In this document: one piece after another, positions 38,207 through 49,222 of the stretch
Layout: each line of letters begins with the position of its first letter
Position numbering within the stretch: position 1 is the first letter of the stretch
The notes under the pieces: generated by a model
What the model was told of the DNA's origin: nothing
Databases searched by the model: none
Seen by the model: only the letters and a program-made list of their open reading frames with translations
DNA from: Kofleriaceae bacterium
Lineage (GTDB): Bacteria; Myxococcota_A; Polyangia; Haliangiales; Haliangiaceae
Direction of reading: 5' to 3'
Length of the DNA: 64,000 bases
NCBI GenBank assembly: GCA_020633495.1
Contig: JACKDR010000001.1
Span: 118,105 to 182,104, forward strand
Translations under genes and position numbers: made by a program

Positions 38207-39610
38207 ATGTGCCCGCGTCGGCTCGCACTGACCACCGCCGCCACCGCGGCCGCCCTGGCCGCGACGGCGACGCTGGCGCTGGCGCTGACCGCGTGCGGCG
38301 ACACCCGGGCCGACGCCGACGCCGCGGCCGCCACCGGCGACGCCGGCGTCGACGCGACGCCGCCGGATCCGGGGCCGACCCGCTACCCCGCCGACACCCC
38401 ACGCTCGCCGATCACCCCGGCGGTCGCGACCCGCCTGCGCGCGATCGCCGCCGCCGGTCCGGCCCAGCGCGATCGGATCTTCCTCAAGGCCGGCGCGTCG
38501 GGCACCGTCAGCCGCAACCTGTTGTACTGCCTCGCCGGTCCCGACCACCAGCCCGGCTACCGGATCGATCTCGACGGTCGCGACGCCCTGCAGCCCACGA
38601 TCGATCGCTTCCGCGCCGAGCTCGTCGCGGGCGACACGTCGTTCGATCGTCCGACCCTCGCCGCCGAGGTCGGCCGCACCGCGCGCTGGGTCCTGACCGG
38701 CGCGCCGTCACCGCTCGACCAGGAGCTGGCGGCGACCACGCCGCGGTTTGCCTTCGTCAACTACGGCACCAACGACATGGAGGCCGCGACCAGCTACGGC
38801 GCGGCGCTGGCGCCGTTCTGGGACGCGATGAACGAGCTGCTCGATCGCCTCGAGGCCGACGGCGTCGTGCCGATCATCACCGGGCTCAACCCGCGGAGCG
38901 ACCGCGCCGAGGCGACGCGGTGGGTGCCGACCTGGGACGCCGTGACCCGCGCCCTGGCCGAGGCGCGTCAGCTGCCGTACTACAGCCTGTACCTGGCGTC
39001 GTCGCCCCTGGCCGACGCCGGCCTGCTCGGCGACGGCCTGCACGGCAACGTCCTGATCGAGGCCGGGGCCGCCCAGCCGTGCGTCTTCACCGCCGCCGGC
39101 CTGGCCTACAACTACGACGTCCGCAACCTGGCGTCGCTCGAGCTGCTCGACGCCACCAGCCGGATCGTCCTCGACGGCGCGGTCGCGCCCGACGTCGCGC
39201 CGCTGCCGCCGATCGCGGGCCAGGGCACGGCGGCGGCGCCGTTCGTCGTCGACCGCCTGCCGTTCACGCACACGTTCACGACCGTCGGCGGCGAGGCGCT
39301 CCGCGACGGCTACCCCGGCTGCGACGCCGGCCAGGACGAGAGCGGTCCCGAGATCGTGTACCAGCTCGACCTCGCCGCGCCCATCCGGTTCCGCGCGGTG
39401 GTCCTCGACGGCCCGGACGTCGACGTCGACGTCCACGTCCTGGTCGACGGCGCGTGCGTCGAGCGCGCCGACCACTACCTCGATCGCGCGCTGCCCGCCG
39501 GCTCGCACCGGATCGTCGTCGACAGCTTCGTCAGCGGCGGCGTCGCGCAGGCCGGCACCTACACGCTGGTGCTGCTGACCTGTGAGGTCGGCGACGCAGC
39601 CTGCGAGTGA
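38207..39610 (+). CDS. secreted lipoprotein, SGNH/GDSL-hydrolase-like N-domain plus beta-rich C-terminal domain
   Basis: The start MCPRRLALTTAATAAALAATATLALALTACGD carries a lipobox. An FVNYGTNDM motif is present. The gene is divergent from the ATPase operon. Confidence 0.55.
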   Translation: MCPRRLALTTAATAAALAATATLALALTACGDTRADADAAAATGDAGVDATPPDPGPTRYPADTPRSPITPAVATRLRAIAAAGPAQRDRIFLKAGASGTVSRNLLYCLAGPDHQPGYRIDLDGRDALQPTIDRFRAELVAGDTSFDRPTLAAEVGRTARWVLTGAPSPLDQELAATTPRFAFVNYGTNDMEAATSYGAALAPFWDAMNELLDRLEADGVVPIITGLNPRSDRAEATRWVPTWDAVTRALAEARQLPYYSLYLASSPLADAGLLGDGLHGNVLIEAGAAQPCVFTAAGLAYNYDVRNLASLELLDATSRIVLDGAVAPDVAPLPPIAGQGTAAAPFVVDRLPFTHTFTTVGGEALRDGYPGCDAGQDESGPEIVYQLDLAAPIRFRAVVLDGPDVDVDVHVLVDGACVERADHYLDRALPAGSHRIVVDSFVSGGVAQAGTYTLVLLTCEVGDAACE

Positions 39611-39665
39611 GGGTCGCGAAAACATTGCGGGTGGCGCCGCCCCGGCCCGTGACCACATTGACCTC

Positions 39666-40781
39666 ATGCGGTCGCCACACGTCGTGGTCATGTTGACCCT
39701 GGTCGCGGGCTGCGGAGTCTCGGCGGACGGGCGCACCGGCGGGCCCGACGCCAGCGTGGAGGTCGACGCCGCGGGCAACGCCGACGCGACGGTGTCCTGC
39801 CAGCTGCCGCCGCTGGCCGCCGGGGTCAGCACCCTCGCCGGCTGCGCCGACCCCGGCGCGATCGACGGCGCCCGTGGCGTGGCCCGGTTCGCCAACCCGG
39901 TCAACGTCGCGCGCGGTCCCGACGGCGACCTCTACGTCGCCGACTTCGACAACGACGCGATCCGCGTCGTCGCCGCCGACGGCGCGACCCGCACGCTGGT
40001 CGCCCAGGCCGACTTCGCGAAGCCGTTCGGCCTCGCCTTCACCGGGGACGGCGTCCTCTACGCCCAGACCGACGACGACGACCTCGGCCAGCACTCCGGC
40101 GACACCGGCACGATCTGGCGCGTCGATCTCGACACCGGCGACGCCACCGTCGTGGTGCGCGACGTCGGCCGCCCGCGCGGGCTCGCCGCCCTGCCCGACG
40201 GCCGCCTGGTGCTGTCGGACTACGTCCACCACACCATCCGGCTGCTGGCCCCCGCCACCGGCGTGATCAGCGCCCTCGCCGGCAGCGCCGATCGGCCCGG
40301 CGACGTCGACGCCGTCGGCGGCGCGGCCCGCTTCGACGGCCCGTACGACGTCGCGATCCTCCCCGACGGTCGGATCGCGGTCGCCGATCAGCACAACGAT
40401 CGCGTCCGCGCGATCGCGCTCGACGGCACGGTCACGCCGCTGGCCGGCACCGGCAGCCCCGGCGCGACCGACGGCGCGGCCCTGACCACGGCGCGGTTCC
40501 ACGCCCCGGCGGCCCTGGCGATCGACGGCGAGGGCACGCTGTACATCACCGACACCGACAACTTCGTGGTGCGCGCCCTGCGCGACGGCGAGGTCTCGAC
40601 GATCGCCGGCGACGGCACCGGAGGCTGGCGTGACAGCGAGGATCCCCTGGCCGCGCAGGTCTACGGCCTCGAGGGGGCCGACGTCAGCGCCGACGGCGCC
40701 ACGCTGTGGCTGGCCGACGGCAACCGCGGTGAGGCCGAGCCCTACAACCGCGTCCGGACGGTCACGATGAACGAGCCATAG
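39666..40781 (+). CDS. NHL-repeat beta-propeller lipoprotein (paralog 1)
   Basis: The start is MRSPHVVVMLTLVAGCGVSADG. Repeated RFxxPxxVAxxPDGxLYVAD/TDTxNxxVR blocks are typical of NHL repeats. Confidence 0.65.
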   Translation: MRSPHVVVMLTLVAGCGVSADGRTGGPDASVEVDAAGNADATVSCQLPPLAAGVSTLAGCADPGAIDGARGVARFANPVNVARGPDGDLYVADFDNDAIRVVAADGATRTLVAQADFAKPFGLAFTGDGVLYAQTDDDDLGQHSGDTGTIWRVDLDTGDATVVVRDVGRPRGLAALPDGRLVLSDYVHHTIRLLAPATGVISALAGSADRPGDVDAVGGAARFDGPYDVAILPDGRIAVADQHNDRVRAIALDGTVTPLAGTGSPGATDGAALTTARFHAPAALAIDGEGTLYITDTDNFVVRALRDGEVSTIAGDGTGGWRDSEDPLAAQVYGLEGADVSADGATLWLADGNRGEAEPYNRVRTVTMNEP

Positions 40782-40858
40782 TCGCCGGCCGACGTTTCGA
40801 GGTCCCAGCAACATCGAGAACGGTGCCCGCCGGCGCGAGCCGTGGTCTACTCGGGACC

Positions 40859-42166
40859 ATGCCAGTCGAGCGGATGCTCGTGTGTGTGATCTTGATCGCT
40901 GGGTGTGGCAGCGGAGGAGCCTCGCCTCCTGACGCCGGCGACATCGACGGCGCCCCCGGCGACGTCAGCACGAGCCCGGACGCCGGGCCCGACGCCGACC
41001 TCGACGCCACGCCGCCCGATGGCATGGCGATCGATGCCATGCCGATCGACGCCGCCCCGATCGACGCCGCCCCGATCGACGCCATGCCGATCGACGCCGC
41101 CCCGATCGACGCCGCCCCGATCGACGCCATGCCGATCGACGCCACGCCGATCGACGCCATGCCGATCGACGCCATGCCGACCTGCGTCGTGCCGGCCTTC
41201 ACCACCGGCGTCAGCACCCTGGCCGGCTGCGAGATCGCCGCCAACGTCGACGGCGCGCGCGCCGACGCGCGCTTCGCCAACCCGGTCAACGTCGCGCGCG
41301 GTCCCGACGGCGACCTCTACGTCGCCGACTTCGACAACAACGAGGTGCGGGTCGTGACCGCGGCCGGCGCCGTGCGCACGCTGGTGGCCCAGACCCACTT
41401 CGTCCGGCCGTTCGGGATCGCGTTCACCGCCGCCGGCGCGCTGTACGTCCAGACCGACGACGACGATCTCGGCGCCCACTCGGGCTCGACCGGAACCGTC
41501 TGGGAGGTCGACCTCGTCACCGGCGTCGCCACCGTGGTGGTCCGCGACGTCGGCCGGCCGCGCGGCCTCGCCGCCCTCGCCGACGGCCGCCTGGTCCTGT
41601 CGGACTACGTCCACCACACGATCCGTCTGCTCGATCCCGACACCGGCACGATCACCGATCTCGCCGGCGCCACCGACCTACCCGGCTACGCCGACGACGT
41701 CGGCGCCGCCGCACGCTTCGACGGTCCCTACGACGTCGCGGTCCTCCCCGACGGCCGGATCGCGGTCGCCGACCTCTTCAACCAGCGGATCCGCGCGGTC
41801 GCGCTCGACGGCACCGTGACCACGCTGGCGGGCACCGGCACGCCCGGCGCCACCGACGGCGACGCCCTCACCACCGCGACCTTCCAGTATCCGGTCGGCC
41901 TCGCCGTCGACAGCGCCGGCGACCTGTACGTCACCGACACCGGCAACTTCGTCGTCCGCAAGCTCGCCGCCGGCGCCGTGACCACGGTGGTCGGCGACGG
42001 CACCGGCGACTGGCTCGACAGCGACAACCTGCTGGCGGCGCGGCTCTACGGCCTCGAGGGCGCCGACGTCAGCGCCGACGGCGCGACGCTGTGGCTCGCC
42101 GACGGCAGCCGGGGCGAGGCCCTGCCGTACAACCGCGTCCGCGTCGTCGACCTGACCGGCCCCTAG
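40859..42166 (+). CDS. NHL-repeat beta-propeller lipoprotein (paralog 2) with (P-I-D-A-x)n linker
   Basis: The start is MPVERMLVCVILIAGCGSGG. A run of about 30 PIDAA/PIDAM/PIDAT pentapeptides lies at about 41020-41185. The NHL core that follows shares long identical stretches with paralog 1 (ARFANPVNVARGPDGDLYVADFDN...). Confidence 0.65.
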   Translation: MPVERMLVCVILIAGCGSGGASPPDAGDIDGAPGDVSTSPDAGPDADLDATPPDGMAIDAMPIDAAPIDAAPIDAMPIDAAPIDAAPIDAMPIDATPIDAMPIDAMPTCVVPAFTTGVSTLAGCEIAANVDGARADARFANPVNVARGPDGDLYVADFDNNEVRVVTAAGAVRTLVAQTHFVRPFGIAFTAAGALYVQTDDDDLGAHSGSTGTVWEVDLVTGVATVVVRDVGRPRGLAALADGRLVLSDYVHHTIRLLDPDTGTITDLAGATDLPGYADDVGAAARFDGPYDVAVLPDGRIAVADLFNQRIRAVALDGTVTTLAGTGTPGATDGDALTTATFQYPVGLAVDSAGDLYVTDTGNFVVRKLAAGAVTTVVGDGTGDWLDSDNLLAARLYGLEGADVSADGATLWLADGSRGEALPYNRVRVVDLTGP

Positions 42167-42169
42167 AAG

Positions 42170-42443
42170 CGTGTACCCGATCGCCCCCCGGCCCGGGACG
42201 CCCCACCGAGATGAGGGGCTGGGTCCCGAGATGCTCGGCGAACTGGACGTTGGCGGCGGAGACGTAACCGGTGTCGGCGGTGACGCAGACCGGAACCGCG
42301 TCGCAGTTGCGGACGACACGTCGGCGCAGCGGCTCGAAGTCCTGGGCGTCGGGGGCCTGCTTGCTGAGGGCGGTGGCCACGATGATCGGGTGCGACGCGG
42401 GCGGCCACTCGCGCGGCGACGGCGGCAACAGGAACGACTGCAT
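42170..42443 (-). mobile_element. IS5/IS4-family transposase C-terminal fragment (relic)
   Basis: The translation ...HPIIVATALSKQAPDAQDFEPLRRRVVRNCDAVPVCVTADTGYVSAANVQFAEHLGTQPLIS resembles the DDE-domain C-terminus of IS5-type transposases (ADKGYDS...N...L...G...I). No N-terminal part or inverted repeats are present, and the frame decays into junk. Confidence 0.45.
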
Positions 42444-42801
42444 CAGCGCGTACTGACGGTCGGCCTTCCCCCCGCCCTTCGATCAGCTCGCCGCGCTCGT
42501 GTCGATCCGTTCGTGTTCGACCCGCGGTGGTGGTGGTGCCAGGCCACGCCGGCACGGGTGACGGGAGCGTGTGGGGGGCGGCCGACGGCGAGTTCCGCAG
42601 CGGGCCCGCGCCACCACGAGACGGCGTCACCGCCCGCGCCCGCCTCGCCGCCCGCGTTCTCGTCACCGCGAGGACTGTCCGAGCCGGAGGACGCCCCCCC
42701 CGCGCTCGCGGCAGGACCCGGGCCGGCGGCCCGCGGTCTCCCCACCGCTCGCGCAGGCGGGGATCCGCGACACGCTCCCAGGCCGGCGCCCTGGCCGAGA
42801 C

Positions 42802-44433
42802 CTAGATCTCCTCGGCCACCATCTCGATCGCGCCGCACGGGCACTCGCGCGCGCACACGCCGCAGCCCTTGCAGAAGTCGAGGTCGAAGCGGAACCGCTT
42901 GCCCGGCCCCAGCTTGATCACGGCGTTGTCGGGGCAGACGCCGAAGCAGTTGTCGCACTCGAAGCAGTTGCCGCACGACAGGCAGCGACGCGCCTCGAAC
43001 AGCGCCGTGGTCTCGTCGAGGCCGCCGTGGACCTCGGCGAACGTGCCGACCCGACGCGCCATCTCGAGCTGCGGCTGCACCGTGCGGTCGGCGTCGACGT
43101 AGTACCAGGTGTTGAGCCGATCGAACCCGGCCGGCGCGTGCTTGGCGGCGGGCTCGTAGGCGCCGCCACGCAGGTAGGCGTCGATGTGGCGCGCCGCCTT
43201 CTTGCCGTGGCCGACCGCGACCGTGATCGTGCGATCGGCGGGCACCATGTCGCCGCCGCAGAACAGGCCCGGGTACCCGGTCATCAGATCGGGGCCGACC
43301 TCCACCGAGCCGTCGGGCGTGAACCGGACCCCGGGCACCGCGCGCAGCGGCGTCAGGTCGACCGCCTGGCCCAGCGCGAGCACCAGCGTGTCGCCGGCGA
43401 TGGTCTCGAGCTCGCCGGTCGGCACCGGCTTGCCGTCGGCGCCGAGCGTCATCTTCTCGATCGTCAGCTCGCCCTCGCCCATCTCCTTGACCGTCGACAG
43501 CCAGCGGACCAGGACGCCCTCCTCGAGCGCCTCGCGCAGCTCGTCCTCGTGCGCGGGCATCTGGGCCTGGGTCCGGCGGTAGACGATCACCGCGTCGGTG
43601 GCGCCCAGCCGCTTGGCGGTGCGCGCGACGTCGAGGGCGGTGTTGCCGCCGCCGTAGACGACGACCCGGCGGCCGAGCAGCGGCGCGTCGCCGAGCCCCT
43701 CGACCTGGCGCAGGAGCCCGATGGCGTCGAGGATCTTGCCGGCGTCGGCGGCGGGGATGTCGACCCGCTTGGCCAGGTGGGCGCCGACCGCCGCGAAGCA
43801 GGCGTCGAAGCCGCCGTCGCGCATCGCCGCCGGCAGATCGTCGACCCGGACCCCGAGCTCCAGCCGCACGCCCATCGTGACGATGCGCTCGATCTCGGCG
43901 TCGACGATCTCGCGGGGCAGCCGGTAGCGCGGGATGCCGTAGCGCATCATGCCGCCGGCGCGGGGCATGGCGTCGCGGATCGTGACGTCGTGGCCGAGCC
44001 GCGCCAGGTGGTAGGCGGCGGCCAGGCCGCTGGGCCCGGCGCCGACCACCAGGACCCGCTTGCCGGTGGCCGCGGCCGGCGCCGGCGCCGGCCAGCCCTC
44101 GCGGATCGCCAGATCGCCGAGGAACCGCTCGACCGCGTGGATGCCGACCGCCTCGTCGAGCTGGGCGCGGTTACAGGCGCCCTCGCAGGTGTGGTAGCAG
44201 GCGCGTCCCATCACCGCGGGCAGCGGGTTGTCGTCGAGGATCGCCTCCCAGGCGGCGCGGTAGTCGCCGGCCTCGGCGTGGTAGAGCCAGCGCTGCACGT
44301 CCTCGCCGGCCGGGCAGGTCGCGTTGCACGGCGGCAACCGATCGACGTAGGTCGGCCGCTGGGTGCGCCACGACCCGGTGTGGTTGTGGAGGCTCGATCC
44401 GGGATCGAGGGTGATCGCGAACGGCTTCTTCAC
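42802..44433 (-). CDS. GltD/SudA-like NAD(P)H-dependent FAD oxidoreductase with C-terminal 2x[4Fe-4S] ferredoxin domain (last gene of por operon)
   Basis: GTG 44433 is preceded by GGGAGG and overlaps the porB stop as GTGA. The N-terminal Cys cluster (CNATCPAGE...CYHTCEGAC) and dinucleotide-binding folds (VLVVGAGPSGLAAAY, VVVYGGGNTALD) are present. The C-terminus carries CLSCGNCFECDNCFGVCP and CKGCGVCARECPCGA. Confidence 0.75.
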   Translation of the reverse strand: MKKPFAITLDPGSSLHNHTGSWRTQRPTYVDRLPPCNATCPAGEDVQRWLYHAEAGDYRAAWEAILDDNPLPAVMGRACYHTCEGACNRAQLDEAVGIHAVERFLGDLAIREGWPAPAPAAATGKRVLVVGAGPSGLAAAYHLARLGHDVTIRDAMPRAGGMMRYGIPRYRLPREIVDAEIERIVTMGVRLELGVRVDDLPAAMRDGGFDACFAAVGAHLAKRVDIPAADAGKILDAIGLLRQVEGLGDAPLLGRRVVVYGGGNTALDVARTAKRLGATDAVIVYRRTQAQMPAHEDELREALEEGVLVRWLSTVKEMGEGELTIEKMTLGADGKPVPTGELETIAGDTLVLALGQAVDLTPLRAVPGVRFTPDGSVEVGPDLMTGYPGLFCGGDMVPADRTITVAVGHGKKAARHIDAYLRGGAYEPAAKHAPAGFDRLNTWYYVDADRTVQPQLEMARRVGTFAEVHGGLDETTALFEARRCLSCGNCFECDNCFGVCPDNAVIKLGPGKRFRFDLDFCKGCGVCARECPCGAIEMVAEEI

Positions 44434-45434
44434 GGCCGGCCTCCCGCGCCGTCGACCAGCTTGAAGCGACGGATGTTGTCGTCGGCGAGCGCCTGCAGGC
44501 GGACCACGACCGGATCGGCCTGGTCGCCGTCGAAGAGGTGGGCGAAGCGCTTCTGGGCCCGCAGGTAGGCGTCGACCGGGACGCGGCGCCGGATCGGCGT
44601 CGACGACGTGACCTCGCCGTCGATCGCCTCGAACAGCGGGAACAGCCCGCACTCGGCGGCCAGCCGCGCCAGCTCGATCGTGCGATCGGTGGCGAAGCCC
44701 CAGCCCAGCGGGCACGGCACGAAGACGTGGAGGTAGCGGGCGCCGCCGAAGCCCATCGCGCGGGTGACCTTGGCCTCGAGATCGTGGAGGTCGAAGACGC
44801 TCGCGGTGGCGACGTACGGCAGGCGGTGCGCCATCGCCAGCAGCGGCAGGCTCTTGCCGGTGCCGAACGGGTTGCCCGGCTCGGCGCCGACGGCGGGCGT
44901 CGTCGCGGTCCGCGCCGCCGGCGGCGTCGCGCTCGACCGCTGCACGCCGGTGTTCATGTAGCCCTCGTTGTCGTAGCAGACGTAGAGGACGTCGTCGTTG
45001 CGCTCGAACATCCCCGACAGGCAGCCGAAGCCGATGTCGGTGGTGCCGCCGTCGCCGCCCTGCGCGATCACGCGGGTGCCCTTGCCCTTGACCCGCATCG
45101 CGGCGGCGACGCCGGTCGCGACCGCGGCGGCGTTGCCGAACAGCGAGTGCAGCCACGGCAGCTGCCACGCGGTCTCGGGCGACGGCGTCGTGAAGACCTC
45201 GAGGCACCCGGTCGCGTTGACCGCGATCAGGTTGCCGCCGGTCGCGCGCATCGCGGTGTCGAGGACGTAGCGGGCGCCCAGCGCCTCGCCGCAGCCCTGG
45301 CAGGCGCGGTGGCCCGAGGTCAGCGCGTTGGCCCGGGTCATCGACGCCTGGACCGTGCGGTGCGAGTCGTCGAGCAGGCGGTTGCCGACGGTGAAGGTGC
45401 CGGTCTGGTAGAACTTGATCCGCTGGGAGCTCAT
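44430..45434 (-). CDS. porB: 2-oxoacid (pyruvate/2-ketoisovalerate):ferredoxin oxidoreductase beta subunit (TPP-binding)
   Basis: The TPP-binding signature is present ([13 protein letters not shown]...[38 protein letters not shown]). ATG 45434 overlaps the porA stop. Confidence 0.8.
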
Positions 45435-46672
45435 CGCGCCCTCCGGGCGTCGCGCAGCATGTTCTCGGCGCTCGGCCCCGAGCGGCGGCGCTCGTCCCAG
45501 CGCGCCAGCTCGCGATCGATCGCGTCGTTGTCGAGATCGACGAAGGTCAGATCGTCGACGGCGTCGGCGTGGGCCGCCTCGATCAGGCGCCGCAGCGACG
45601 CCCGCGTCACCGGACGGCCGCCGAGCCCGGCGATCGCGGTGTAGACCGGGATCGGCTGGCCGCGCAGCGCCATCCGCACGTTCGACGCCATCGCGCCGCC
45701 GAGCCCGGGCGCCAGGTTGCGCTCGACGACGACGACCCGCTGGGCGCCGCCGAGCGCGCCGGCCAGCGCGGCCAGCGGGAACGGGCGGAACGCGCACAGC
45801 GCGACCGCGCCGACCGCGAGGCCGGCGTCGCGCAGCTCGTCGATCGCGACCTCGATCGTCCCGGTCACCGAGCCCATCGCGACGACGATCGTGTCGGCGT
45901 CGCCGGTCCGGTAGCCGTGCAGCAACGCGCCCGAGTCGCGGCCGAAGCGGGCCCGGAAGTCGGCGGCGAGCTGCGGGATGCGCTCGAGCGCCTGCAGCTG
46001 CTTGTGGTGGGCGAGGTAGCGGACCTCGGTGAAGGCCTCGGGGCCGACCATCGCGCCGATCGACACCGGATCGGTGGGGTCGAGGACCTGGACCGGCCGG
46101 TACGGCGGCAGGAACGCGTCGACGTCGTCCTGGGCCGGCACGTCGAGCGGCTCGACCGAGTGGGTCAGGACGAAGCCGTCGACGCACACCATCACCGGGC
46201 ACGACAGCTCCTCGGCGAGGCGGAACGCCAGGACGTGGAGGTCGACCGCCTCCTGGGCGTCGCGGGCGAACAGCTGGATCCAGCCGGCGTCCTTGAGCGC
46301 CATCGCGTCGGAGTGATCGTTCCAGATGTTGATGGGCGCGCCGACCGCGCGGTTGCCCAGCGTCATCACCACCGGCAGGCCCAGGCCCGAGACGTTGTAG
46401 ACCACCTCCGCCATGTGCAGCAGGCCCTGGCTCGCGGTCGCGGTGTAGGCGCGGGCGCCCGCCGCCGACGCGCCGAGCGCGACCGACAGCGCCGAGGTCT
46501 CGGACTCGACGTTGATGTACTCGCACGGCGCCAGCGTGCCGTCGCGCACCAGCTCCGACAGGCCCTCGACGATGTGGGTCTGCGGCGTGATCGGGTAGGC
46601 GCAGACCACCTCGGGGCGACAGCGCGCGATCACCTCGGCGATCGCGCGCGAGCATTCGAGTTGCTTCAGCAT
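45431..46672 (-). CDS. porA: 2-oxoacid:ferredoxin oxidoreductase alpha subunit
   Basis: The PorA-like sequence begins at [32 protein letters not shown]. The start is in frame with ORF 45431..47296. Confidence 0.8.
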
Positions 46673-47238
46673 CGCGCGGGCTCCGGGCGGGTCAGCGCGA
46701 AGGTGGCGGCGGCCGCCGCGGCGTTGCGCTCGCCGACGTCGCCGGCGAAGCGCTCGCGGATCGCGGCGCGCAGCGAGTCGAGCGCGACCGCGCCGGTGAG
46801 GCCGGCGAAGCCGCCGAGCAGCGCGGCGCTGGGCAGCGGCCGACCCAGGTGGGCGCGCGCGATCTCGGTCGCCGGCACGCAGCGAGCGTGGCCGCGCGGG
46901 AACCGCTCGACCCACTCGGCGAGGCCGAGGTCGGCGAAGCCGCGGCTGGAGTTGACCAGGACCCAGCCGTCGTCGTGCAGCCCGGCGAAGACGTCGAGCG
47001 ACTGCAGCAGCGTCGGATCCTGGACGACGACGACATCGGGCGCGGTGATGGGCTCGCGCAGCCGGATCGGCTCGTGGTCGAGCCGGCAGAACGAGACCAC
47101 GGGCGCCCCCATCCGCTCCGAACCGAAGCTGGGGAAGGCCTGCGCGTACTGCCCCTCGCGGAAGGCGGCGAACGACAGCAACTCGGCGGCGGTGACGACG
47201 CCCTGGCCGCCACGACCATGGATGCGTATCTCGAGCAC
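46666..47238 (-). CDS. porG: 2-oxoacid:ferredoxin oxidoreductase gamma subunit
   Basis: GTG 47238 begins [22 protein letters not shown], a canonical PorG start. The upstream part of the ORF is junk. Confidence 0.75.
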
Positions 47239-47278
47239 GGGACCTCGGGGCGCCTGGGAGGGGCGCACGACCTCCCCG

Positions 47279-47295
47279 TGCAAGCCAGGTGCCCA
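47279..47295 (-). promoter_or_regulatory. sigma-54 (-24/-12) promoter candidate for the porGAB-gltD operon
   Basis: The minus strand reads TGGGCAC-CTGGC-TTGCA, which is GG-N10-GC and matches TGGCAC-N5-TTGCW at all key positions. The site lies about 40 nt upstream of porG GTG and is divergent from a sigma-54 activator gene. Confidence 0.55.
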
Positions 47296-47434
47296 CGCCT
47301 CCGACGCCGTGAGGCCGGGTCGAGCGTGCAGCGGTTGCGCCGGCCCCCGGGGCGGCGCAGGGATTTCGCGCGAGTTGACGCGTTTACAAGGCCGCGCCAG
47401 GGCGCAGCCGTTGCGGCCACCCGGCGGCGCGGCG

Positions 47435-49222
47435 ATGATCGCCGGGATGCGTCTGATGGTGGTCGAGGGCCCGGACCGCGGCCGCGAGCTCGAGCTGGTC
47501 GAGCCCGGCGGCGCCCTCGGCCGCGCCGACGACTGCGCGATCCGCCTCGGCGACCCGGCGGTCAGTCGCCACCACTGCCGGGTCGTGGTGCACGGCGCGA
47601 CCGCGCGCCTGGTCGACGACGCGAGCACCAACCGGACCCTGGTCAACGACGCGCCGGTGCGCGAGGTCGAGCTGCGGCCCGGCGATCGGATCGCGGTGGG
47701 CCGCACCGTCCTGGTGGTCGCCGGCGCCGCGCCCGCGGTCGCGCCGCGGCCCGCCGCGATCGAGCTGGCGACCGTCGAGCTGGTGACCCGCGCCGGCGGC
47801 GCCGACGATCTGCCGGCGGTGCTGGCCCGCCTCGGCGACGCGCTGCAGCGCGCGACCGACGTCGCCGCCGCCGCGACCGCGGCGTGCCAGGCGGTCGCGA
47901 CCGCGCTCGGCGCCGCGGCGGTGACGCTGGTGCGGCGCCGGGCCGACGGCGACCTCGACGCGATCGCCGCGACCGGCGCCGCGACCGGCGCCGCGGACGG
48001 CGGGGCGGACGGCGCCGCGGACACGACGCCGGGGATCGATCCGCGCGCCGCGATCGATCGCGGCGTCGCCGCGGCCTACGTCCTGGCCGATCGTCACGTC
48101 CTGGTGGCGCCGCTGGCGCCCGCCGACGCGACGGCGCTGGTGCGCGGCGCGCTGATCGCGACGCGCGCCGCGGCGTGGCGCCGTCGCGACCTCGAGCTGG
48201 CGTCGGCGCTGGCGCGGCTGGTCGGCGCCGGCCTCGACGCCCAGGTCGCGCGCGATCGCCTCGATCGCGCCAACCGCTCGCTCGCCGAGCGCCTCGGCGG
48301 CGCGGTGATCGCCGACAGCGACGCGTCGCGCCAGCTCGCCACGCTGATCGCGCGGGTCGGGCCCACCGACACGACCGTGCTGATCACCGGCGAGTCCGGC
48401 GTCGGCAAGGAGCTGGTCGCCGAGGCGGTCCACGCCGCCAGCCCGCGGGCGCGCGGCCCGTTCGTCGCGGTCAACTGCGCGGCGCTGTCCGAGGGCCTGC
48501 TCGAGAGCGAGCTGTTCGGCCACGAGAAGGGCGCGTTCACCGGCGCCGCGGCGCGCCGCGCCGGTCGCCTCGAGCAGGCCGACGGCGGCACGCTGTTCCT
48601 CGACGAGGTCGGCGAGCTCGGCGACGCCGCCCAGGCCAAGCTGCTGCGCGCGCTCGAGGCCCGCCGCTTCGAGCGGGTCGGCGGCGCCCACACCGTCGCC
48701 GTCGACCTGCGGCTGATCGCGGCCACCAACCGCGACCTCGAGGCGATGGTCCACGCCGGCCGGTTCCGTCGCGATCTCTACTACCGGCTGTGCGTGGTGC
48801 GCCTGGCGATCGCGCCGCTGCGCGAGCGCCGCGCCGACGTCGCGCCGCTGGCGCGCCTGTTCGTGGCCCGGTTCGGCGCCGCCACCGGCCGGCCGCGCAC
48901 GCTCGACGACGACGCGCTCGCCGCGCTCGAGGCCCACGACTGGCCCGGCAACGTCCGCGAGCTGCGCAACGTGATCGAGCGGGCGATCGCGCTGGGCGCC
49001 GGCCCGACGATCACCGCGGCCGACGTCGAGCCGCTCGGCGCCCTGGCCGCGGTGGCGCCCGCGACCGGCGACGCGCCGCCGCGATCGCTGCGCGAGCTGG
49101 AGCAGGAGGCGGTGGCGGGCGCGATGAAGGCGGCGCGCGGCAACAAGGCGCGCGCCGCGCAGCTGCTGGGGATCGACCGCACGACGCTGTACAAGAAGCT
49201 GAAGCAGCTCGGGCTCGGCTGA
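47435..49222 (+). CDS. sigma-54-dependent transcriptional activator, FHA-GAF-AAA+-Fis HTH architecture
   Basis: An N-terminal FHA domain is present ([22 protein letters not shown]...NRTLVND). The central sigma-54 interaction domain has [15 protein letters not shown] and the GAFTGA motif. The C-terminal HTH is [21 protein letters not shown] 47435 is in frame. Confidence 0.8.

Follow-up and report, generated by a model that had tools for sequence, protein, structure and literature searches.

We analyzed a window of 64,000 nucleotides (G+C content, about 75%) from the genome of a Kofleriaceae bacterium (GenBank assembly GCA_020633495.1, contig JACKDR010000001.1), focusing on a four-gene operon on its minus strand that encodes PorG-, PorA-, and PorB-like subunits of a pyruvate:ferredoxin oxidoreductase (PFOR)-type enzyme and, last, a flavoprotein. 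Judged from its profile matches and alignments, the fourth gene is porD itself, the gene for the delta subunit; in its product, an inserted, circularly permuted GltD/NfnL module separates the N-terminal arm from the ferredoxin domain. With moderate confidence, we propose that the four genes together specify one self-contained, non-bifurcating pyruvate:NADP+ oxidoreductase, in which an internal wire of five iron-sulfur clusters would lead from thiamine pyrophosphate (TPP) to flavin adenine dinucleotide (FAD). The four-gene arrangement is common in bacteria, yet apparently uncharacterized.

An earlier inspection of the DNA letters alone (the sequence-only reading) had placed a four-gene pyruvate oxidoreductase (POR)-type operon at 42802-47238. 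These coordinates were exact, and profile searches with Pfam and NCBIfam, the latter under its curated cutoffs, confirmed the domains of the products. The porG-like gene (46666..47238, minus strand) has a GTG start and encodes a gamma subunit of 190 aa, which matched Pfam POR (131 bits) and TIGR02175 PorC_KorC (185 bits; cutoff, 81). It is followed on the same strand by the porA-like gene for a 413-aa alpha subunit (45431..46672; POR_N and PFOR_II) and the porB-like gene for a 334-aa beta subunit with four cluster-binding cysteines (44430..45434; TPP_enzyme_C). The gamma, alpha, and beta subunits are thus encoded together, as in the core of a four-subunit POR or 2-oxoisovalerate oxidoreductase (VOR). 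All four genes overlap successively from 47238 down to 42802: porA overlaps the porG stop by 7 nt, porA and porB share an ATGA overlap, and the fourth gene (42802..44433, minus strand) begins at a GTG that overlaps the porB stop as GTGA and follows the sequence GGGAGG. This overlap had been predicted along with a product of about 540 aa, and the protein indeed has 543 aa. Since porG and porA overlap, no separate porD lies between them, and the gene calls on the window gave none elsewhere in the operon.

Architecture of the fourth protein

Over residues 6-542, the fourth protein matched positions 20-566 of NF009410 (PRK12771) with 735 bits (cutoff, 516), a model that NCBIfam names merely "NAD(P)-binding protein." Fer4_20, Pyr_redox_2, and a C-terminal dicluster domain were also matched, which agrees with the GltD-like FAD and NAD(P)H module and the two C-terminal CX2CX2CX3CP motifs described in the sequence-only reading. 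That reading had taken the fusion to stand instead of a delta ferredoxin, and this part had to be revised: the fourth protein is the delta subunit, since its two ends rebuild a complete PorD. Nor had that reading noticed that the flavoprotein is an insertion into PorD and is permuted relative to GltD/NfnB.

The protein begins with a PorD-type arm, PFAITLDPGSS..NHTGSWRTQRP (residues 1-33; 44335..44433, minus strand, as for all segments that follow), which on its own matched PorD_Arch 5-31 (E = 9e-6) and has a mean column conservation of 0.84. Next comes the second part of the Fer4_20 iron-sulfur domain (residues 34-113; 44095..44334), which harbors C36, C40, C79, C83, C87, and E102 and corresponds to Fer4_20 model positions 30-112. 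Residues 120-425 (43159..44076) contain the FAD and NAD(P)H Rossmann domains, with the motifs GAGPSG and GGGNTALD...VYRRT (Pyr_redox_2, 91 bits). The start of a canonical GltD/NfnB iron-sulfur domain, a helix and the sequence EARRC484LSC487, is placed only after this flavoprotein body, at residues 462-488 (42970..43050). Finally, residues 489-543 (42805..42969) correspond to a PorD-type 2x[4Fe-4S] ferredoxin domain that passed TIGR02179 PorD_KorD (66 bits; cutoff, 60) and matched the delta chain 9bt4_G; its dicluster motifs are C490/493/496/500-P and C521/524/527/531-P.

Both the split and the permutation could be undone in silico. Splicing residues 1-35 to residues 486-543 yielded a sequence that covered PorD_Arch 5-85 of 85 in one stretch (88 bits) and reached 82 bits against TIGR02179, compared with 66 bits for the native protein. 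As for the flavoprotein, the N-side Fer4_20 match begins at PPC36xxxC40P, and model positions 2-36, including the EAxRCxxC start, correspond to residues 462-496; when the sequence was re-permuted, a single complete Fer4_20 match resulted, with 88 bits versus 72 bits in the native order. Moreover, HMMER aligned the protein to the canonical NfnI-L (5jca_L) in two swapped pieces, with residues 448-503 matching NfnL 6-59 and residues 59-421 matching NfnL 81-470. Taken together, the PorD arm, the PorD dicluster, the swapped Fer4_20 halves, and the two-piece alignment argue for a porD gene with an inserted permuted module. The best solved matches of the fourth protein were 9bov_A and 9n5u_A (Nfn-BfuA) and 8oh5_C (StnC), which carry the same permuted cassette at residues 99-574. 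An AlphaFold2 model built from a 12-sequence alignment had a mean pLDDT of 54, with both termini below 50, and was discarded.

Predicted electron path and substrate

Residue conservation was counted over 65 aligned sequences of the fourth protein. The protein has 18 cysteines in total, of which C36, C40, C79, C83, C87, C484, C487, C490, C493, C496, C500, C521, C524, C527, and C531 were invariant, and C533 was kept in 59/65 sequences. Also invariant was E102, whose position in the alignment is that of the non-cysteine ligand to the FAD-proximal cluster (a Glu in NfnL and Lys170 in StnC), as were R171, the equivalent of NfnB R201, and R286 and R287 of the GGGNTALD...VYRRT motif. The YRR sequence is also found in the NADPH-binding proteins StnC and NfnI-L, and the pyridine-nucleotide site of the fourth protein is accordingly predicted to be of the NADPH type. 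NfnB position 333 corresponds to H295, which is His in 59 and Arg in 2 of the aligned sequences, and the segment equivalent to the extended N-terminus of NfnB has been moved by the permutation to residues 448-488.

These ligands predict a wire of five clusters from TPP to FAD, made up of the PorB cluster, two PorD clusters, and two flavoprotein clusters. Pyruvate and coenzyme A (CoA) would react at the TPP held by PorA and PorB, and electrons would exit singly via the PorB [4Fe-4S] cluster, whose ligands C45, C48, C77, and C241 lie in motifs conserved relative to 9bt4_C. They would then pass through the clusters of the PorD domain, first that of C500/C521/C524/C527 and second that of C490/C493/C496/C531, and on to the first flavoprotein cluster, formed by C484 and C487 with C36 and C87 as the other likely ligands. 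The motif C490/C493/C496 belongs to what we take, from ferredoxin and PFOR structures, to be the outer, ferredoxin-facing cluster. C484 and C487 stand only 2 to 5 residues before it on one peptide, and therefore the first flavoprotein cluster and the outer PorD cluster should be neighbors. From the FAD-proximal cluster (C40, C79, C83, and E102), the FAD, an ordinary, non-bifurcating flavin, would gather two electrons and reduce NADP+. The net reaction would be pyruvate + CoA + NADP+ -> acetyl-CoA + CO2 + NADPH; a soluble ferredoxin would be unnecessary, the delta subunit having been turned into an NADP+ reductase.

Regarding the substrate, the best solved relative of PorA was 9bt4_B, the alpha chain of a four-subunit PFOR (347 bits), with oxalate oxidoreductase next (202 bits). 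PorB likewise matched the PFOR beta chain 9bt4_C best (298 bits, aligned from residue 37), again followed by oxalate oxidoreductase. Among NCBIfam models, PorA, PorB, and PorC gave the top matches despite scores below their cutoffs, and for PorA the PorA_Arch model scored 418 bits versus 271 bits for VOR alpha. Pyruvate would thus be the likeliest substrate. We also observed an N-terminal extension of about 30 aa in PorB (residues 1-33; window 45335-45434, minus strand). Conservation of this extension is high across 64 loci, and the archaeal PorB of the solved four-subunit PFOR lacks it. It may be the element on which the inserted flavoprotein docks.

Distribution, co-evolution, and regulation of the operon

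To find relatives, a scan of one genome per species was made with two peptide patterns, NCFECDN and GGMMR[FY]GI, and at least 597 stretches were confirmed. From the matches listed, 80 loci were kept for synteny, 64 with all four genes and 16 in which the contig ends upstream. The order porG-porA-porB-fusion, which the sequence-only reading had proposed to look for in other genomes, was kept in 80/80 loci (in the 16 truncated ones only the genes nearest the fusion are visible), so the arrangement is not due to chance. The gene 5' of the fusion was porB in every case, and in 74 of the 80 the fusion start either overlaps the porB stop or is no more than 20 nt away from it. The same reading would have been abandoned for an unrelated gene with its own promoter, or for a lack of co-conservation with porGAB; both possibilities fall away, because translation of the fourth gene is coupled to that of porB and the gene is strictly conserved together with porGAB.

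The 80 loci come from Alpha-, Beta-, and Gammaproteobacteria, Actinomycetota, Acidobacteriota, and Planctomycetota, and protein matches added fusion homologues from Chloroflexota, Gemmatimonadota, and Myxococcota. Hosts include Azospirillum, Bradyrhizobium, Accumulibacter, Gallionella, Rubrivivax, some Streptomyces, and a Pelagibacteraceae metagenome-assembled genome (MAG) from an oxygen-minimum zone. A record identical to the fourth protein comes from a Kofleriaceae (Myxococcota) MAG. Identity across phyla is 63 to 72%, which implies horizontal spread of the four-gene unit. Pairwise distances of the fusion and of PorA were correlated (Mantel r = 0.62; 0/999 permutations as high), indicating that the proteins of the operon co-evolve. 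No flanking gene family was conserved across the 80 loci, any one family occurring in at most 4 of them, and the operon therefore behaves as a self-contained, mobile unit. Neighbors acting at the pyruvate node nevertheless recur: genes for phosphofructokinase (PFK) with hyp/HoxH genes (locus L081), pyruvate kinase (L088), and glycogen phosphorylase with Usp (L087), and in some genomes pyruvate phosphate dikinase (PPDK), phosphoenolpyruvate (PEP) synthase, or malic enzyme adjoins the operon (L037, L001, and L049).

Two loci have further features. L081 (2934-15632) is the closest relative on a long contig, with an 86% identical protein; it has the PFK gene on one flank and, on the other, the hypA-F maturation genes and the large subunit of a HoxH-type [NiFe] hydrogenase, a neighborhood that hints at a hypoxic module from sugar to H2 and NAD(P)H. 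In a Phycisphaerales MAG (L043, 4146-5882), the fused gene is followed after 31 nt by a gene for a second GltD-like protein (578 aa), whose motifs stand in the canonical, non-permuted order (EAxxCLQCGGPC...CP) and which has a dicluster at its C-terminus.

A sister clade of the fused protein, 55 to 58% identical, keeps all cluster ligands, but its PorD arm motif is degenerate. In Phenylobacterium, Methylovirgula, and Aeromonas (L083, 6938-12197; L084, 6905-12220; L085, 7001-12234), a gene of this clade immediately precedes one for a single-chain, nifJ-type PFOR, and the association of the family with PFOR is therefore general. By this comparison, an intact PorD arm is confined to the clade that has to dock on PorAB. 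A dihydroorotate-dehydrogenase-like gene then follows in two plasmid records (a Phenylobacterium zucineum plasmid and Methylovirgula pHY1), the third case being Aeromonas caviae. In the Phenylobacterium protein (L083, 6938-8578), FVS replaces YRR where the NAD(P)H-binding strand ends, which suggests a different pyridine-nucleotide preference.

In the Kofleriaceae genome, a sigma-54-type -24/-12 promoter-like element, GGGCAC-N5-TTGC (GGGCACCTGGCTTGC; 47280..47294, minus strand), ends 42 nt upstream of the porG start. No other site in the window comes within one mismatch of TGGCAC-N5-TTGC. With about 2.2 such sites expected over both strands, chance placement in the 196-bp intergenic region and on the correct strand is unlikely. 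Divergently from the operon, a gene at 47435..49222 (plus strand) encodes an enhancer-binding protein with an FHA domain, a sigma-54-interacting AAA+ domain (Sigma54_activat, 230 bits), and HTH_8. This protein is a candidate regulator, and in this myxobacterial genome the operon is probably under sigma-54 control. At a related myxobacterial locus (L082), CGGCAT-N5-TTGC is found 24 nt upstream of porG, and an FHA-type activator and a Ser/Thr kinase gene are also present, the activator lying about 4 kb upstream of the operon. Among non-myxobacterial loci, just 2/64 have a motif with at most one mismatch upstream of porG, and sigma-54 control would therefore be lineage-specific.

Scans of 42000-48000 for intrinsic terminators and sigma-70 promoters found nothing, and the predicted folding of the sequence 3' of the operon stop codon does not stand out from that of shuffled controls (z = -1.1). 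About 630 bp without a convincing gene (42167-42801) separate the operon stop from a convergent NHL-repeat gene (40823-42166). An open reading frame at 42069..42443 (minus strand), which at first sight resembled a transposase remnant, had no Pfam match. Inside the NHL-repeat gene, 12 tandem copies of a 15-bp unit (41001-41180, plus strand; 85% matches) specify a low-complexity linker, (PIDAA/PIDAM)n, of the secreted-looking product, and a paralogue lies just upstream, at 39582-40781.

Alternative readings and relation to known enzymes

In the pyruvate:NADP+ oxidoreductase that we propose, complex formation, the cluster assignments, NADPH over NADH, pyruvate, and the oxidative direction are the parts that we infer. 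NfnB-like monofunctional ferredoxin:NADP+ oxidoreductases working with PFOR are experimentally established, and three markers set them apart from bifurcating NfnB: the N-terminus is short, position 333 is not Arg, and nfnA is missing (PMC12221290). The first of these markers is inapplicable to the fourth protein because of its circular permutation. Several points weigh against our proposal. Clusters were assigned to their ligands by homology and by reference to PFOR and ferredoxin structures; the YRR motif is the only indication of an NADPH preference; the Glu-ligated proximal cluster and the conserved R171 are common to bifurcating NfnL; the PorD clusters, which are surface exposed, might serve an external ferredoxin; and no biochemistry on any family member was found in the literature. 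In addition, the catalytic subunits missed the equivalog cutoffs for pyruvate synthase (PorA, 418 < 550; PorB, 325 < 405; PorC/PorG, 205 < 225), so that the assignment of a substrate is provisional. They passed only the "pyruvate/2-ketoisovalerate family" subfamily model, and models of VOR, oxalate oxidoreductase, and phenylglyoxylate dehydrogenase matched as well, as might be seen with an NAD(P)+-linked oxidoreductase for another 2-oxoacid (2-oxoisovalerate, another branched-chain or aromatic acid, 2-oxoglutarate, or glyoxylate). We consider such a substrate quite unlikely, since the pyruvate-specific models and the solved PFOR score clearly highest (418 versus 271 bits and 347 versus 202 bits) and the recurrent neighbors make or use pyruvate.

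The direction of the reaction could also be the opposite one. As an NADPH-dependent pyruvate synthase (acetyl-CoA + CO2 + NADPH -> pyruvate), the complex would feed gluconeogenesis or acetate assimilation in aerobes without low-potential ferredoxin. The PPDK, PEP synthase, or malic enzyme genes beside the operon at L037, L001, and L049 would suit this role, and many hosts, e.g., Accumulibacter and Gallionella, assimilate acetate or CO2; the Glu ligand of the proximal cluster is tied to low potential in NfnL, and the POR-FldA-FqrB chain of Helicobacter pylori is described as reversible in the account given in PMC7084853. Nevertheless, the other neighbors are glycolytic (PFK, pyruvate kinase, and glycogen phosphorylase), and the operon encodes no coupling device. 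Textbook potentials are about -500 mV for acetyl-CoA + CO2/pyruvate and -320 mV for NADP+/NADPH, from which we calculated that reverse operation is uphill by about 35 kJ/mol, and we regard it as unlikely. NADPH-driven reductive carboxylation, offered as an alternative in the sequence-only reading, fared poorly: it is thermodynamically unfavorable without bifurcation, and most of the markers of bifurcation that we tested are lacking (nfnA is missing, and position 333 is His rather than Arg). A bifurcating or confurcating NfnL-like site would link NADPH, the low-potential POR clusters, and a third, high-potential partner, the flavin splitting NADPH electrons between the POR chain (acetyl-CoA + CO2 -> pyruvate) and a high-potential acceptor encoded elsewhere. 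Such a site would accord with the resemblance of the module to NfnL, with the Glu ligand of its proximal cluster, and with the conserved Arg that corresponds to R201 of NfnB. However, no nfnA-like gene was present in or near the operon at any of the 80 loci, no flanking family was conserved (at most 4/80), Arg333 of NfnB is replaced by His in 59/65 sequences, and the FAD of StnC and Nfn-BfuA, the most closely related solved proteins, is non-bifurcating (PMC10482914), all of which makes bifurcation here very improbable. If it did occur, it would open a ferredoxin-free route to run pyruvate synthase in aerobic and facultative bacteria.

The proposed pyruvate:NADP+ oxidoreductase can be compared with several known systems. 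With PorGDAB (solved as PDB 9bt4), it shares homologous gamma, alpha, and beta subunits, which match with high scores, as well as the delta arm and dicluster and the TPP and beta [4Fe-4S] motifs. The delta subunit of PorGDAB, however, is a free 2x[4Fe-4S] protein (about 85 aa; such subunits have about 80 to 105 aa) encoded between porG and porA, whereas here its gene comes last and an insertion of about 455 aa, with two more clusters, FAD, and an NAD(P)H site, divides the protein. The conserved N-terminal segment of PorB is a further difference, and the predicted acceptor is NADP+ rather than ferredoxin. In StnC and Nfn-BfuA, a NuoG-like protein is described as interrupted by a GltD-like domain that binds NADPH, two [4Fe-4S] clusters, and a non-bifurcating FAD (PMC10482914, PMC12018979). 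They resemble the fourth protein in score (8oh5_C, 9n5u_A, and 9bov_A, 272 to 305 bits), in the permuted order PPCxxxCP ... EAxRCLxCG, in the YRR motif, and in the insertion of such a module, with its flavin and two clusters, into another iron-sulfur protein. Here, the host protein is PorD instead of a NuoG/HydA-like protein, the proximal ligand is Glu instead of Lys, and the bifurcating partners StnAB/BfuBC are absent. A similar NfnB-like insertion into a ferredoxin domain is reported for the HdrA of ANME-1 (PMC9012536). The Cac_0764-type ferredoxin:NADP+ oxidoreductases (Huang et al. 2025, PMC12221290) share Fer4_20 and Pyr_redox_2, two [4Fe-4S] clusters, and FAD, lack nfnA and the Arg at NfnB 333, and act downstream of PFOR, as predicted here; they are free-standing, of canonical order, and served by soluble ferredoxin, whereas the module here is permuted and built into the delta subunit of the PFOR. 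With NfnB/NfnL itself, the fourth protein shares the Fer4_20 and FAD/NADPH domains, the Glu ligand (E102), and the invariant R171 (R201), but its domain order is permuted, nfnA is not upstream, and Arg333 has become His.

The analogy to pyruvate:NADP+ oxidoreductase (PNO), drawn in the sequence-only reading, still appears to be the best reading. In the PNO of Euglena and Cryptosporidium, one chain combines a PFOR with a fused cytochrome-P450-reductase-type domain binding flavin mononucleotide and FAD. The predicted net reaction is the same and would likewise be carried out by a single enzyme. Here, the catalytic part is split over three subunits, and the reductase-type module was not detected, with no Pfam matches to flavodoxin, FAD_binding_1, or NAD_binding_1 domains in the operon proteins; the two solutions arose independently. 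The phenylglyoxylate dehydrogenase PadEFGHI (Hirsch et al. 1998, as cited in PMC5109826) is described there as a POR-type core with a flavoprotein feeding pyridine nucleotide, but with the delta subunit and flavoprotein encoded by separate genes and with NAD+ and an aromatic substrate. Pad models matched the corresponding parts of the operon far below their cutoffs (PadE, 145 < 300; PadG, 256 < 700; PadI, 194 < 700; PadF, 46 < 150). The notion that Pad-epsilon is GltD-like was not supported: no epsilon model of NCBIfam matched the flavoprotein core at E <= 1e-8, and the flavoprotein is therefore probably of another class than that of Pad. Functionally, the POR-FldA-FqrB chain of H. pylori and Campylobacter jejuni (St Maurice et al. 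2007, as cited in PMC7084853) is similar, although in that account it consists of three separate proteins with a diffusible flavodoxin, and FqrB is unrelated in architecture. The five-subunit POR and 2-oxoglutarate oxidoreductase of Aquificae were considered as a precedent and set aside, the extra subunit being similar to the epsilon subunit of carbon monoxide dehydrogenase and not a flavoprotein (PMC10052474). A full-text literature search found no description of a PorD-GltD fusion; its coverage was incomplete, and an earlier description is possible.

Structurally, the operon combines PorGDAB with an insertable GltD cassette of the StnC type, and the fourth protein is a clean case of a circularly permuted flavoprotein cassette inserted in a ferredoxin domain, both of its ends meeting at one iron-sulfur cluster. 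StnC and Nfn-BfuA have this cassette too, as does, according to the literature, the HdrA of ANME. Genes of the porGAB type are usually annotated and modeled as ferredoxin dependent and usually anaerobic. A widespread variant of this kind, not surprising in principle, affects how PFOR genes in aerobes are read. As a compact module from pyruvate to NADPH, it might also be of use in engineering. If NADP+ is reduced directly, pyruvate oxidation would yield NADPH in these hosts with no need for a ferredoxin pool, and redox balances would change in models of hypoxic survival, of polyphosphate-accumulating organisms, and of soil bacteria.

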